NCBI GenBank assembly: GCA_963769885.1
Contig: CAVYNH010000006.1
Coordinates: 256,001 to 320,000 of the forward strand
Origin: Methanobacteriota archaeon
GTDB taxonomy: Archaea; Thermoplasmatota; E2; DHVEG-1
Direction of reading: 5' to 3'
Length of the DNA: 64,000 bases
Part shown: positions 53,139 to 59,098 of the stretch, piece after piece
Numbering within the stretch: position 1 is the stretch's first letter
How the letters are laid out: each line of letters begins with the position of its first letter
Program-made: the position numbers and the translations under genes
The notes under the pieces: generated by a model
Databases searched by the model: none
Told to the model about the DNA's origin: nothing
What the model saw: the letters and a program-made list of their open reading frames with translations, nothing else

Positions 53139-53994
53139 ATGGACGACCACCACATCGTCACCGGCATCATCGAACTCATCCGCACCGCCGAAACCACCCT
53201 CCCCACCGACGTCATCACCGCCCTGCAAAAAGTACAGCACCACGAAACCGGCATCGCCAAACTCCAACTCACCACCATCCTCGAGAACATTCACCTCGCC
53301 AAAGAAACCAACCGCCCCCTCTGCCAAGACACCGGCATCCAAACCTTCTTCATCGACGTCGGCGCCGACTTCCCCCACATCAACAAAATCCACACCTGGA
53401 TTCACCACGCCGTCACCCAAGCCATCACCGCCGTCCCCCTCCGACCCAACGCCGTCGACCCACTCACACGGAAAAACGGCGACGACGCGATACCATACCC
53501 CGTCTTGTACCTGGAATCTCGTTTCTGGCGACACCCTCCGCATCCACGCTCTCCCCAAAGGCAGCGGCAGTGAAAACACCAGCCGCCTCGCCATGCTCAC
53601 CCCCAGCGACGGCATCGGCGGCATCACAAAAACCGTCCTCGATACCGTCACCCGCGCCGCCGGACGGCCCTGTCCACCCACCGTCGTGGGCGTCGGCATC
53701 GGCGGCGACGCCGCCACCGCCCTCAAATTAGGCAAGACCGCGCTCCTCCGCCCCGTCGGCAGCCGACACTCGGACCCAGCAATCGCCCGCCTCGAACACG
53801 ACCTGATCAGCGAATGCAACAAGACCGGCATCGGCCCCATGGGCCTCGGGGGAAAGACCACGGTCCTCGACGTCCACATCCAGACCATGCCCTGCCACCC
53901 CGCTGGGCTGCCCGTCGGCGTCGCCATGCAATGTTGGGCGGACCGCCGGGCACAGCTTACCGTTCAAGCGGACGGCACCTGGGAGGTCCGCTGA
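53139..53994 (+). pseudogene. Fe-S fumarate/tartrate hydratase alpha subunit, frameshifted near 53505
   Basis: PLCQDTG and LRPNAV are in one frame; PKGSGSEN, PCPP, GIGPMGLGG, CHPA and QCWA are in the next frame. Confidence 0.8.
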
Positions 53995-54548: not shown

Positions 54549-54801
54549 TTCCTAAGGGGCGTCCCGTATGTCTCAGAGTATGGGAAGCGTCGAGATGACG
54601 TGGTGGGGATGGTGCATGTGAAGGATCTGATTGAGGAGACGTTTGGGGAGAACACGGATGAGCATGATTGGGTGAGGGGGGTCGTGCTCGGGGGACGTAT
54701 GAGGGGATATGGGAGGGTGGGAAAAGTTGGCGGGGTGGCATTTGGTCGCGCTAGGTATTTAAGGAGGGAGTGTCAAAGTATATCATGGTGAGTTGAGAGC
54801 C

Positions 54802-54900
54802 ATGATTGAGATCATCATCGTTGGGGCTGCGGCCGCCGCGGGTGTGACGCTGCCGATCATCAACCCTGTGATCAACCCGGGGATTAACCCGAACCCCTAG
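54802..54900 (+). CDS. 32-aa peptide MIEIIIVGAAAAAGVTLPIINPVINPGINPNP (candidate RiPP precursor)
   Basis: TATTTAAG at 54756-54763, GGTGA SD at 54787-54791, ATG...TAG, T-tract at about 54945-54961. Confidence 0.6.
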   Translation: MIEIIIVGAAAAAGVTLPIINPVINPGINPNP

Positions 54901-54967
54901 CTGACTCACTCGTTGTTTCTTCCGTAGTCGTCTGGGGCTGGGGGTTTCTTTTCTTTTTTTTGTGGGT

Positions 54968-55948
54968 TTAGAAGAGTTTTGGGAGCCAGCGTTCGAGGTA
55001 GCTGTTTTCGGTGATCCAGAAGCTTTGTTTTTTGATGGCGTTGGGGAAGGTGCGGTCGATGTCCTCGAGGATGGTGCTGAGTTCGTTGACGTCTTTGACG
55101 ATGAACTCGGGTTCGATGTCGGCCCAACCGACGGAGACGTTGATGCAGTCCATGTAGGGTTTTGATTCAAGGTAGGTGATGATGGCTTTGCGGCTGTTGT
55201 GTTCTTTGAGGTGGATGTCGATTTTGAAGTGCTGCAGGCCGAGTTTGGCGAGGTCGATGTTGGTGCGGAAGCCTTGGATGACGCCTTTTTTGGTGAGGTT
55301 CTGCAGGCGGTAGTTGACGGATTGGGAGGAGCAGCCGAGCTTGGTGGCGAGGTCGATGACGGGGGCGCGGCCGTTGATGGCGAGCTCGTTGAGCAGGTGG
55401 TAGTCGGTCTCGTCGATGTCGGCGCCGGTGCCGCCGCAGGTGGAGGTGTACAGTTTCCGGTCTGAGTGGTCTGGGGCGGTGCCGAGGAGGTAGGAGCGTT
55501 TGTAGGAGTAGGCCTGGATGTAGATGCTGACGATGGCCCGGGAGAAGTAGTCCTCGTAGAGGTCCAGGGTCTTGTCCCAGAACCGGTAGAACTCGTAGAG
55601 GTCTTTGACCCAGACGATGACGGCCAGGTCGACCTCGCCGCGGTGGGATTTGACGGCCCAGGTGCTGTTGTAGTCGACGAAGTGCTTGATGATCTGGTTC
55701 TTCTTCTCGGTGCTGACGTATTGGAAGGTAATGTAGATGCGGAAGACGTTGTAGCCGAGCTTGAAGGTGTTGATTTCCGCGAGGAAGTTGCGGATGATGC
55801 CCTCGTCGCGCATCCGCTGGACGCGGTAGGAGACGACGTCTTTCTTCAACCCGACCTTCTTGCCGATTTGGGTGAACGACTGCCGTGAGTCGAGGTCGAG
55901 CTCGTAGAGAATCTTGCGGTCTTTGAGATCAAGCGGTGACTGCGTCAC
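54968..55948 (-). CDS. Tandem Lrp/AsnC family regulator
   Basis: LDLKDRKILYELDLDSRQS...VSYRVQRM and IDETDYHLLNELAINGRAP...VNYRLQNL. Confidence 0.9.
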   Translation of the reverse strand: MTQSPLDLKDRKILYELDLDSRQSFTQIGKKVGLKKDVVSYRVQRMRDEGIIRNFLAEINTFKLGYNVFRIYITFQYVSTEKKNQIIKHFVDYNSTWAVKSHRGEVDLAVIVWVKDLYEFYRFWDKTLDLYEDYFSRAIVSIYIQAYSYKRSYLLGTAPDHSDRKLYTSTCGGTGADIDETDYHLLNELAINGRAPVIDLATKLGCSSQSVNYRLQNLTKKGVIQGFRTNIDLAKLGLQHFKIDIHLKEHNSRKAIITYLESKPYMDCINVSVGWADIEPEFIVKDVNELSTILEDIDRTFPNAIKKQSFWITENSYLERWLPKLF

Positions 55949-56090
55949 GTCCCCGTCAGGCCCCCAGGGAGATTTTCAACGAACGTGGAACGACCAGCGG
56001 GTATTTTAGAATTTTGAGGCAAAAACCGGGATACGGCATTTATGTACCATAATCAGGCTCTATCCACCAAGCACAGGAAGCTTGAGAGCC

Positions 56091-56303
56091 ATGCTCACTC
56101 CGACCACCAGACAAGAGACGAACACGATCGTGTACCACGCCGCCGTGACCTACACCGACGGGACCTCCGAGGTCTTCGACGCAATCCAGGTCACCGACCG
56201 CGGCCTCATCATCAGCCGCCTTCCGCCAGGCGACGGCGGGGAGCTCATCACCTTCGGCTTCATCCCCCGCCTCAGCGTCAAACACGTCGTCACCCTCCCC
56301 TAA
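56091..56303 (+). CDS. Small beta-rich hypothetical protein
   Basis: 70-aa ORF directly upstream of, and co-oriented with, the rSAM gene. Confidence 0.6.
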   Translation: MLTPTTRQETNTIVYHAAVTYTDGTSEVFDAIQVTDRGLIISRLPPGDGGELITFGFIPRLSVKHVVTLP

Positions 56304-56360
56304 CCCCAGACAAGGTTAACTTTAAAACCCAGCACCAGATTTGATTCCCCCAAGGATCGG

Positions 56361-58265
56361 ATGCCAACTACACCAAAATCAGTGCTTCTCGTGGCCATGC
56401 CCTATGCCGGCATCATGATCCCCTCGATCCAGCTCGCCACCCTCCAAGCCTACCTCCAGGCCCACGACATCCCCGCCCAGACCCGCCACCTCTACCTCAC
56501 CGCCGCCGACACCTACGGCCTCACCGCCTACCACGCCCTCATCTACCCCCCCAGCGACTCCTACACCGCCCAGCTCGCCTACACCCGCTACCTCTTCCCC
56601 GACCACTGGCACCACCACCACGAGAAAATCAAGGACCACTACGACGCCACCATCAACAAACACCACACCGCCCCCACATTCGACGACTACCTCCACCACA
56701 CAGACGACTTCTACCACCACGCCCTCGACCACCTCGACTGGCACCATTTCGACCTCATCGGCTTCACCCTCAACTACGGCCAACTCCTCCCCTCTCTCGC
56801 CATCGCACAGCATATCAAAACCCAAGACCCCACCAAAACCATCATCATGGGAGGAAGCCGCACCACCGGCGACCTCGGCACCGCCGCCCTCACCGCCTTC
56901 CCCCAAATCGACTACATCGTCTCCGGCGACGGCGAAGAACCACTCCGCCTCCTCGCCACCGACCACGACCCCACCACCATCCCCGGACTCATCCACAGAA
57001 AAGACGGCAAACCCCACTGGAACACGACCAGATCAGACCTCGACCTTGCAGACTTTCCCATCCCCACCCACGACGACTTCTTCACCCACCTCCGCCACTG
57101 CGGTAGCGAACTCCAGCAGTTCTTCCACTACTCCGGCCGCCTCCCCGTCGAAATCTCCCGCGGCTGCTGGTGGAACCACTGTACCTTCTGCAACCTCAAC
57201 CTCCAACACCCCCGCTACCGCGAAAAACCCATCCCCACCATCATCACCGAGATCCAGACCCTCGCCGATCGCCACCACCTCCTCGACTTCCACCTCATCG
57301 GCAACACCCTCCCCAAAACCCAATCAAGAGAATTCTTCACCCGCCTCCGCGACCTCGGACGCGACTACACCTTCTTCGCCGAAGCCCGTGCCGGACACCT
57401 CACCAGCGACGACTACCGCCTCATGAGAGACGCAGGATTCGCTACCATTCAAACCGGCATCGAATCCTTCAGCCACCACTACCTCCGTACTATGAACAAA
57501 GGCACCCGCGTCATCGACAACATCGCCGCCCTCAAACACAGCACCCAACACGGCATCCACAACACCTACAACCTCCTCACCAACTACCCCAACGAGACAC
57601 CCACCGACTACCAAGAAACCAAAGACGTCGCCGCCCTCCTCAAGGCCTACCTCGACCCCCCACAACCCTGCCCCCTCCAACTCATGCACGGCAGCCCCAT
57701 CCACCGCAATCCCCGCCGCTACAACATCCAACGCCTCCAGCCCACCACCCTCGACCGCCTTATGTACCCACCCGGCATCCTCGCCACCGCCATCTCCTTC
57801 TTCTACGACTACACCACCGCCACACCCACACCAACCCACGACTGGGGCGCCCTCATCACCGACTGGAAACACACCCGCGACGCCGCCCAGACCCGCGCCC
57901 TCGCCACCCGCGCCGCCACCGACCGACTGGTCTTCTACAGCGTCGACGGCGGAAGCTTCATGAAAGTCTACGACCGCCGCGACCCCAGCCACATCCGCAT
58001 CCTCGACCTCAACCGCCTCGAACGAGACATCCTCCTCGCCTGCACCGACATCACCACCTACCCCCAACTCCAACGACGGTTCCCGGACATCCCCGACTTC
58101 AAACTCGCCGCCGTCCTCCAATCCTTCGAACACGCCGGCATCGTCTACCGCGAAGACGACGCCTACCTCAGCCTCCCACTTCGACTCACCACTCCGGAGA
58201 TTCGATCAAGGACAGAACAGCCAGATTCTACCCCTAACCCTGTTCCCATAAGCATCAGCCACTGA
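56361..58265 (+). CDS. B12-dependent radical SAM protein, RiPP-maturation C-methyltransferase type (TIGR03975-like)
   Basis: VLLVAMPY...PSIQLATL, B12 domain (IIMGG, VSGDGE), EISRGCWWNHCTFC, QTGIES, YNLL. Confidence 0.85.
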   Translation: MPTTPKSVLLVAMPYAGIMIPSIQLATLQAYLQAHDIPAQTRHLYLTAADTYGLTAYHALIYPPSDSYTAQLAYTRYLFPDHWHHHHEKIKDHYDATINKHHTAPTFDDYLHHTDDFYHHALDHLDWHHFDLIGFTLNYGQLLPSLAIAQHIKTQDPTKTIIMGGSRTTGDLGTAALTAFPQIDYIVSGDGEEPLRLLATDHDPTTIPGLIHRKDGKPHWNTTRSDLDLADFPIPTHDDFFTHLRHCGSELQQFFHYSGRLPVEISRGCWWNHCTFCNLNLQHPRYREKPIPTIITEIQTLADRHHLLDFHLIGNTLPKTQSREFFTRLRDLGRDYTFFAEARAGHLTSDDYRLMRDAGFATIQTGIESFSHHYLRTMNKGTRVIDNIAALKHSTQHGIHNTYNLLTNYPNETPTDYQETKDVAALLKAYLDPPQPCPLQLMHGSPIHRNPRRYNIQRLQPTTLDRLMYPPGILATAISFFYDYTTATPTPTHDWGALITDWKHTRDAAQTRALATRAATDRLVFYSVDGGSFMKVYDRRDPSHIRILDLNRLERDILLACTDITTYPQLQRRFPDIPDFKLAAVLQSFEHAGIVYREDDAYLSLPLRLTTPEIRSRTEQPDSTPNPVPISISH

Positions 58266-58504: not shown

Positions 58505-59098
58505 ATGGAATACTTCTTTATCCTATCGTTTTTAGTCCTGGGCGCCGGAATCAAGTTCATCGATGCCGCTTACGACGAACACGCCTTCAGCAAACGCTTC
58601 GCACTCCTCGCCGCGCCACTCCTCGGCATCCTCTGGGCCTACACCATGTACATCGACGCGGCCTCAGCCACGATCCTCTGCGCCATCCTCGCCGGCGTCC
58701 TTCTCAAAGGAAAAATCGACAACTGGGCACACCTCGCGGGCCTGGGAGTGATCGGCGGAGTATTACTCGTGTCTGGGGTAAAACTCCTCATCCTCCCCCT
58801 CATAATACTCGCCGCCGCCGCCCTCATCGACGAAATCGGCAACGACGCCATCGACAAACGCCGCAGCCGCCTCCAACACAAGGGAACAGCCGGCACCGCC
58901 CTCCTCCTCTTCTTCGACCACCGCTGGACCCTCAAAGTCGCAATCCTCGGCCTGGCCACCATCAGCATGATCCCCCTGCTGTTCTTCTTCGCGATGCTCT
59001 GCTTCGACTATGCGTACCTCGGGATGCGCCACTACAGCGAATTCCGCCTCAGCCGACTCCCCAGCCACGCCACCACCCCGGGATCAACCGTGGCCTAA
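58505..59098 (+). CDS. Multi-TM protein with Asp-rich motifs (paralog 1)
   Basis: GAGIKFIDAAYDE, KGKIDNWAH, LIDEIGND. Confidence 0.8.
   Translation: MEYFFILSFLVLGAGIKFIDAAYDEHAFSKRFALLAAPLLGILWAYTMYIDAASATILCAILAGVLLKGKIDNWAHLAGLGVIGGVLLVSGVKLLILPLIILAAAALIDEIGNDAIDKRRSRLQHKGTAGTALLLFFDHRWTLKVAILGLATISMIPLLFFFAMLCFDYAYLGMRHYSEFRLSRLPSHATTPGSTVA

Follow-up and report, generated by a model that had tools for sequence, protein, structure and literature searches.

The systems closest to the one described here are the polytheonamide proteusin pathway and the bottromycin methyltransferases. In the former, a PoyA precursor is modified by the B12 radical S-adenosylmethionine (SAM) C-methyltransferases PoyB and PoyC, the peptide being hydrophobic and rich in Ile, Val, Ala and Gly, and the product being directed to the membrane; in the latter, class B radical SAM enzymes methylate unactivated beta-carbons, including those of proline, in a short ribosomal peptide (PMC11285071). 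The window considered here is a stretch of 64,000 nucleotides from a Methanobacteriota archaeon (GTDB lineage Thermoplasmatota; E2; DHVEG-1; contig CAVYNH010000006.1), and it contained a micropeptide gene, a gene for a tandem Lrp/AsnC regulator and a gene for a B12-binding radical SAM enzyme of the TIGR03975 family. These three genes constitute one module, linked by evolution and kept across uncultured sediment Thermoplasmata, which makes the micropeptide a strong candidate for a new modified-peptide system in archaea. To our knowledge, few ribosomal modified peptides are known from archaea, and those peptides that we know to have been characterised as substrates for B12 radical SAM methyltransferases carry long leaders or sit in large clusters. 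Here, by contrast, a minimal three-gene module has been conserved in many genera of a sediment archaeal lineage from which nothing has been cultured.

The evidence for the module came from comparison of loci. A scan of species-representative genomes with a profile of the enzyme returned 80 loci, 69 of them archaeal and 11 bacterial. Among the archaeal loci with enough flanking sequence, a homologous peptide gene was present at one of two expected places, beside either the enzyme gene or the Lrp gene, in approximately 45 of 50, this being the linkage between precursor gene and enzyme by which a system of peptides that are made by the ribosome and then modified post-translationally (RiPPs) is recognised. 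In the first arrangement (order A), which is that of the window, the peptide gene lies downstream of the Lrp gene and converges upon it, while the enzyme gene follows on the other side; in the second (order B), the peptide and enzyme genes share a strand, the former lying 47–227 nucleotides directly 5' of the latter, and the Lrp gene is found beyond the enzyme, facing back towards it. When these orders were placed on the enzyme tree, it was seen that they had been interconverted at least four times (five by parsimony), the three genes being contiguous each time. Four assemblies contained two enzyme loci, and every copy with assembled flanks had an Lrp gene of its own; both copies in two of these assemblies (L070 and L071; L073 and L091), and one copy in a third (L088), also had their own, different peptides. 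Across 24 sampled genomes of the family, all three genes were present in 16 and none in five, including one single-contig genome, while the locus was cut at contig ends in the remaining three. Plain adjacency would be weak evidence here, since the family as a rule preserves its gene order well; the linkage is not weak, because the genes were repeatedly rearranged without being separated, were duplicated together and were lost together. An earlier reading of the window, made from the sequence alone, had guessed from proximity in one genome that the micropeptide, the Lrp gene and the radical SAM gene belonged together as a candidate RiPP system; the loci described above now support that linkage.

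The micropeptide gene occupied positions 54802–54900 of the forward strand and ended in a TAG stop codon at 54898–54900. It encoded 32 amino acids, MIEIIIVGAAAAAGVTLPIINPVINPGINPNP, in which a hydrophobic and conserved N-terminal part precedes a tail made up of INP three times over and then NP, with the codons atc aac cct, atc aac ccg and att aac ccg for the successive units. Upstream, on the same strand, a TATA box (TATTTAAG) was read at 54756–54763 and a Shine-Dalgarno-like GGTGA at 54787–54791, 10 nucleotides before the ATG; an oligo-T run at 54945–54961 of the forward strand separated the convergent peptide and Lrp genes and is likely to be an archaeal terminator. All of these elements, and the varied INP codons, had been described in the sequence-only reading and were seen again as described. 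On its own, however, an open reading frame (ORF) of this kind is weak evidence and permits no conclusion from one genome, because a frame of such length would be open by chance in approximately 40% of cases at this composition (P = 0.40 for a stop-free frame, shuffled composition).

The reality of the gene was established instead through comparison across relatives. In a same-genus genome, the syntenic position, flanked by fumB and the Lrp gene, was occupied by a 31-residue ORF, MTEIIIAGAVAGAIVAAGYMPGYMPLGVMPK, with conserved DNA upstream of it. An ORF of 24–33 residues was found at the corresponding place in 17 genera, where the frame was open in all 17 while stops occurred in the other frames (summed log10 P = -13.7, with relatedness ignored); this held over a GC content of 27–54% at the locus and 26–60% within the ORF. 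Codon differences in eight close, partly overlapping pairs amounted to 34 silent and 29 replacement changes, the closest pairs showing ratios of 2:1 to 4:1. A profile built from eight of the peptides, the window ORF among them, matched only this ORF among all ATG-started ORFs of 18–80 amino acids in the 2.09-Mb genome. The micropeptide had no match in Pfam or NCBIfam, and each of eight peptides that were looked up was absent from a collection of approximately 15 billion predicted proteins; the family is unannotated, and its precursor of 23–41 amino acids is invisible to gene callers. On these comparisons, the micropeptide gene is real and constitutes its own regulated transcription unit.

In total, 48 distinct homologous peptides of 23–41 amino acids were collected from 58 loci. 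The first ten positions followed the pattern M-[E/D]-[K/E/I]-I-[I/V]-I-x-[G/A]-A-[V/A], and the middle part was rich in Ala, Gly, Val and Thr. The last 6–14 residues were variable, with no tail position conserved across the 48 peptides. Tandem repeats of three to five residues were present in 15 of the 48 tails, namely INP, GYMP, ICP (in five peptides), VMP, GVFP, GWT, GVNP, GITP, GHTPS, GIN and GWM. Proline was the commonest fixed residue of the tail (33 of 48) and most often followed Cys, Met or Asn. Tail types tracked the clades of the enzyme: in the clade of the window there were mostly two or three copies of hydrophobic-X-Pro, X being C, M, F or N, while one other clade had [W/Y/F]-x-[M/I]-x-x-x-L and another CP(L)QF(L). 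Since Pro and the hydrophobic residue are kept while the middle residue changes, the INP repeats are the local form of a repeat that extends through the clade. With its conserved N-terminus and variable tail, the peptide looks like a substrate; the suggestion in the sequence-only reading that the C-terminal repeats represent a variable core agrees with this pattern, in which the tails are often repeated throughout the family. No cleavage site was identified in the peptide. Interpretation as a lipobox or signal peptide was considered and rejected, since Cys occurred in just 19 of the 48 tails and the N-terminus is not that of a standard signal.

The radical SAM enzyme (634 amino acids, positions 56361–58265, forward strand) was a full-length member of TIGR03975 (rSAM_ocin_1; RiPP maturation radical SAM C-methyltransferase), scoring 334.4 bits where the cut-off is 281.85. 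Orthologues with 43–63% identity were present in 17 of the 24 sampled family genomes and in one genome of a sister family, and homologues were labelled as uncultured sediment Thermoplasmata, for example SG8-52-3, SM1-50, M11B2D and M9B1D. A match to Radical_SAM (PF04055) was obtained with E = 1e-13, and the iron-sulfur cluster motif was C269-x4-C274-x2-C277 (GCWWNHCTFC, positions 57165–57191, forward strand); these three cysteines were invariant in 30 orthologues. Their spacing is CX4CX2C, where the usual radical SAM cluster has CX3CX2C. The cobalamin-binding model PF02310 matched weakly at residues 128–198 (19.2 bits, against a gathering score of 32.1; E = 0.0011), and several orthologues carry a precomputed match to it; the protein taken whole does fit the model of the B12 radical SAM family. 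A search of PDB sequences with the enzyme gave one weak match to a radical SAM core (9ccb_A, E = 2.6e-6).

The assignment to TIGR03975 made in the sequence-only reading was thus confirmed over the full model; the C-terminal extension that it had also proposed was not. Residues 8–607 aligned to positions 1–606 of the 606 in the model, leaving approximately 27 poorly conserved residues beyond the match, so that no domain has been added and the region in question is the family's own winged-helix domain (positions 57933–58190, forward strand). In an AlphaFold model of residues 441–634, this domain comprised three strands (85–89, 94–97 and 105–108 of the model), three helices (112–120, 127–133 and 139–152) and a wing, the helices having a predicted local distance difference test (pLDDT) score of 84–96. 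Exhaustive structural search with the domain recovered, among its matches, the RiPP recognition elements (RREs) of TigE (8vpo_A, Z = 7.4) and MibB (5ehk_B, Z = 7.2), the former a radical SAM enzyme and the latter a lanthipeptide dehydratase. The modelled domain has the strand-strand-strand-helix-helix-helix topology of an RRE and is compatible with a peptide-recognition element, without proving one; it is regarded as a candidate for that role. Foldseek comparison of the C-terminal model with the PDB returned just generic winged helices (E > 0.02), and Pfam searches up to E = 10 gave nothing useful for the C-terminus, including no PqqD. Co-folding of the full enzyme with the peptide gave a score of 0.02, the mark being 0.32, and counts neither for nor against binding.

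Signals for transcription and translation were conserved along with the peptide. In most of 47 distinct upstream regions a TATA box stood 58–73 nucleotides before the ATG (mostly at approximately 66–69), and nearly all had a motif of the GGTGA or GGTGG type at -11 to -16 (mostly -12 to -14). The peptide promoters of relatives also contained an inverted repeat, TGACA-N3-TGTCA, approximately 20 nucleotides upstream of the TATA box, and approximately two-thirds of the 47 regions contained a second, perfect inverted repeat at -34 to -43. The arms of the second repeat co-vary, since it reads either TGTCA-N5-TGACA or TGATA-N5-TATCA. Two inverted repeats were seen to flank the TATA box in the peptide promoters of loci L013 to L103 (for example L017, 7300–7415), and the downstream repeat probably overlaps the start of transcription, in the manner of a repressor site. 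In the genus of the window this downstream palindrome has mostly been lost, and the distance between TATA box and ATG is shorter for that reason. The palindromes were absent from the Lrp-enzyme intergenic region, and so they provide no direct evidence of a regulon.

The regulator itself (326 amino acids, positions 54968–55948, reverse strand) contained two HTH_AsnC units per chain, recognised as two HTH_AsnC/HTH_24 stretches (E = 1e-22 and 7e-24), with partial matches to the LrpA and LysM models. Orthologues of 47–65% identity adjoined the radical SAM gene in nearly every locus. The tandem Lrp family was much expanded in some genomes, with 17 matches in one single-contig genome (G003), and up to three tandem Lrp copies were found in a row beside the enzyme gene (L015, 9619–12720).

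From these observations, a mechanism can be proposed in which the peptide is the substrate of the enzyme. The Lrp protein would control the peptide promoter through the inverted repeats around the TATA box; the conserved N-terminal stretch M-E/D-K-I-I/V-I-x-G/A-A would dock on the C-terminal winged helix of the enzyme; the enzyme would then methylate the peptide, at least once, on carbons that are unactivated and that probably belong to the variable tail, which here means the INP repeats; and the product would be a modified peptide, either membrane-active or resident in the membrane, whose tail would differ between lineages. The chances that the peptide is recognised by its N-terminus, C-methylated in this way and expressed under the tandem Lrp through the palindromes appear to be somewhat better than even. 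If the enzyme does modify the peptide, the module would provide a compact, testable system for peptide C-methylation; genome mining would gain a new family of precursors, and there would be a first sign that these archaea use chemistry based on peptides. A further step would be to see the peptides as lineage-specific, enzymatically methylated signals or agents of competition among benthic Thermoplasmata, with the N-terminus as a handle, the tail as a diversifying determinant of specificity and the Lrp protein as a switch. This is an improbable elaboration at present; were it true, a major uncultured lineage of archaea would have, for the first time, a widespread family of peptide pheromone-like molecules or RiPPs of its own, and the B12 radical SAM C-methyltransferases would have a new minimal class of substrate.

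Several observations weigh against the peptide being the substrate. Binding and modification are both putative. Five archaeal loci with enough flanking sequence had no recognisable peptide, and gene order is fairly conserved throughout the family, such that part of the adjacency is inherited and not selected. In hydrophobicity, the conserved part at the N-terminus equals a membrane helix (the median of the best 17-residue Kyte-Doolittle means was 1.89), which is unusual for a leader. In the structural search, generic winged-helix regulators tied with the RREs (Z = 7–8.7), and thus RREs were not separated from DNA-binding winged helices. Neither a peptidase nor a transporter or exporter recurred with the module across the compared loci; the sequence-only reading had likewise seen none. 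A secreted protein of approximately 560 amino acids, carrying a papain-family (C1) protease domain and, in fusion with it, a NosD-like beta-helix, was encoded near the module in five genera (L014, 9766–11457, with homologues in L016, L017, L019 and L023) and stood between the enzyme and Lrp genes in one genus; it was not consistently linked.

Finally, membership of TIGR03975 is by itself no proof of a peptide substrate. Bacterial homologues with 31–35% identity passed the cut-off of the family at 355–388 bits, their loci (L098, L101 and L104–L112) belonging to Desulfocapsa, Desulfobulbaceae and unclassified bacteria. Their neighbours were either an Asp/Glu racemase gene with a LolA-like gene, or tandem pairs of the enzyme beside adenylation, carrier and thioesterase genes of the non-ribosomal peptide synthetase type, and neither the peptide nor the Lrp gene was present in any of them. 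These contexts suggest that part of the family has non-ribosomal or envelope substrates. Because the bacterial members differ in context and have no peptide, the family name cannot be taken as evidence for a peptide substrate, and the case for one rests on the archaeal linkage data; TIGR03975 membership alone is not a predictor of RiPPs.

It is possible, though we consider it doubtful, that the peptide is a real but unmodified small membrane protein or signal under the control of Lrp. Peptide and Lrp genes would then keep together as target and regulator, and the enzyme would be another target of that regulator, unrelated to the first. The inverted repeats conserved in the peptide promoter take the form of Lrp-type operators, as such a role would have it, and the lack of any similar repeat between the Lrp and enzyme genes points the same way. 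Order B speaks against this, since it places the peptide gene 47–227 nucleotides 5' of the enzyme and the Lrp gene on the far side, which is the classic layout of a precursor and its maturase, and all three genes have been gained, lost and duplicated jointly.

Genes 3' of the enzyme raised another possibility, which is that the enzyme modifies an isoprenoid membrane lipid. In the window it was followed by two paralogous membrane proteins of approximately 190 amino acids with an Asp motif and no family match (58505–59098 and 59221–59796), and then by two geranylgeranyl-reductase-like (GGR-like) flavin adenine dinucleotide (FAD) enzymes (59903–62204). An atlas search with the second membrane protein returned just clusters of archaeal 'hypothetical protein', and Pfam searches up to E = 10 likewise gave nothing useful for either paralogue. 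Under this alternative, the enzyme would work with the membrane proteins and the GGR-like flavoenzymes, and the peptide would not be a substrate but a small membrane protein acting as an anchor or partner. The membrane paralogues and GGR-like genes indeed often come after the gene for the enzyme (in 7 of the 15 loci compared, and in approximately 20 within the wider set), the hydrophobicity of the peptide would suffice for a membrane helix, and some of the TIGR03975 contexts described above are unlike RiPP clusters. There is also precedent in that B12 radical SAM enzymes are known to modify archaeal tetraether lipids (bioRxiv 10.1101/2025.10.20.683597). However, the distribution of the membrane-protein family did not follow that of the enzyme. 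No member of it was found in eight family genomes with the enzyme, these being G001 (of the same genus as the window), G003 and six more, and it was present in four that lack the enzyme (G019, G030, G032 and G033). Nor would a variable, repeat-bearing tail be expected of a structural partner, and the other B12 radical SAM paralogues of this genome are more plausible as lipid enzymes. A lipid substrate is accordingly judged unlikely, and the enzyme as a maker of butanetriol-type or methylated tetraether lipids was set aside as the principal interpretation, given that the occurrence of the lipid-like neighbours does not match that of the enzyme. Both the membrane paralogues and the flavoenzymes were treated as neighbours and not as parts of the module.

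Two further alternatives concern the peptide alone. Its tail could be the source from which a small cofactor or redox molecule is excised, as with PqqA and PqqE or the mycofactocin pair MftA and MftC, for the precursors are of similar size (23–41 amino acids here), a radical SAM enzyme with a winged-helix domain of the peptide-binding type is present, and the module mostly occurs as a single, apparently inherited copy with no protease or exporter; but cofactor precursors keep the residues that form the cofactor, while in these peptides variation is greatest in the tail, which has no invariant position, and this origin is very improbable. That the ORF is a chance open frame encoding nothing, in compositionally skewed DNA, might be entertained from this genome alone, given the 40% chance of openness and a window full of spurious ORFs arising from strand skew, but it has already been rejected on comparative grounds and is scarcely credible when the frame, start context, promoter and N-terminal residues are conserved in 58 loci at 26–60% GC, with stops in the other frames and an excess of silent changes.

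The sequence-only reading had also pointed to a 70-residue ORF (56091–56303, forward strand), situated between the Lrp and enzyme genes. This is not a core part but a sporadic accessory, since homologues were found in few genomes, each time in the same position between those two genes. Its structure was modelled as a small five-stranded beta-barrel (pLDDT 85), whose best matches were Sm/SH3-like barrels (Z of approximately 5, which is weak), and not as the winged-helix fold of an RRE; Pfam again gave nothing useful up to E = 10. The two compared genomes that have a homologue of this ORF at the locus, G010 and G014, have extra copies of the tandem Lrp gene. At its start codon and at that of the micropeptide there was an identical 12-mer, TTGAGAGCCATG (56082–56093 and 54793–54804, 1289 nucleotides apart), which occurred exactly twice in the whole 2.09-Mb genome and was not common to the G014 and G010 homologues; the start context may have been copied locally, or the two genes may share a translation signal.

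Other features of the window lay outside the module. Directly 5' of the peptide promoter, a frame of 63 codons (54600–54791) resembled the C-terminal end of a CNNM/CBS-domain membrane protein, which is intact at the corresponding position in relatives (L016, 5991–6971); to judge by this resemblance, the frame looks like the remnant of a gene. The fumarate hydratase alpha-subunit gene (53139–53994) was split over two frames near 53497–53516, where a same-genus genome has an intact protein of 284 amino acids, and either a frameshift or an assembly error is responsible. GC content was approximately 53% in the genus of the window, compared with 27–44% in sister genera at the same loci. Strand skew was strong and produced long spurious antisense ORFs, for example one of 412 amino acids opposite the acetyl-CoA synthetase gene. 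An Rfam search of the window produced no match, and no stretch resembling it turned up in an index of other genomes.

A literature search found no description of the peptide family or of TIGR03975 in archaea, its coverage being incomplete and novelty therefore unproven. Among known systems, the archaeal B12 radical SAM enzymes that act on lipids, such as the ring synthase and methylases of glycerol dialkyl glycerol tetraethers (GDGTs), the methylase of glycerol monoalkyl glycerol tetraethers (GMGTs) and the tetraether desaturase, resemble the enzyme described here in class, in archaeal host and in often having GGR-like neighbours. They belong to other families, however, whereas this enzyme passes TIGR03975 over its full length and has an extra C-terminal winged helix, and its linkage to membrane-protein and GGR genes is inconsistent. 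The PqqA/PqqD/PqqE and MftA/MftB/MftC systems share with the module very short, unannotated precursors, a radical SAM enzyme and loci that are inherited and conserved, and their winged-helix peptide-recognition element has a candidate counterpart here; they differ in that their enzymes are of the SPASM type and not the B12 type, and in that their precursors keep an invariant tail where the tail is variable here.

The resemblance to bottromycin, compared by description, lies in the class of enzyme and in proline, which is the commonest fixed residue of the tails (33 of 48), but the bottromycin precursor includes a follower peptide, and its cluster is large and encodes multiple enzymes. With the proteusins, the module shares a very hydrophobic ribosomal peptide rich in Ile, Val, Ala and Gly and a membrane-directed product, which in the present case is predicted, PoyB and PoyC having been compared by description (PMC11285071). 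Both also have a non-canonical cluster motif, CX7CX2C in PoyC and CX4CX2C in this enzyme. In contrast to the proteusins, the precursor is only 23–41 amino acids long and has no family match to a nitrile-hydratase-like (NHLP) or Nif11-like leader, neither of which would be possible within a peptide of this total length, and no epimerase, N-methyltransferase or protease is linked to it. The host here is an archaeon, and the module is apparently inherited within its lineage together with an Lrp regulator of its own.

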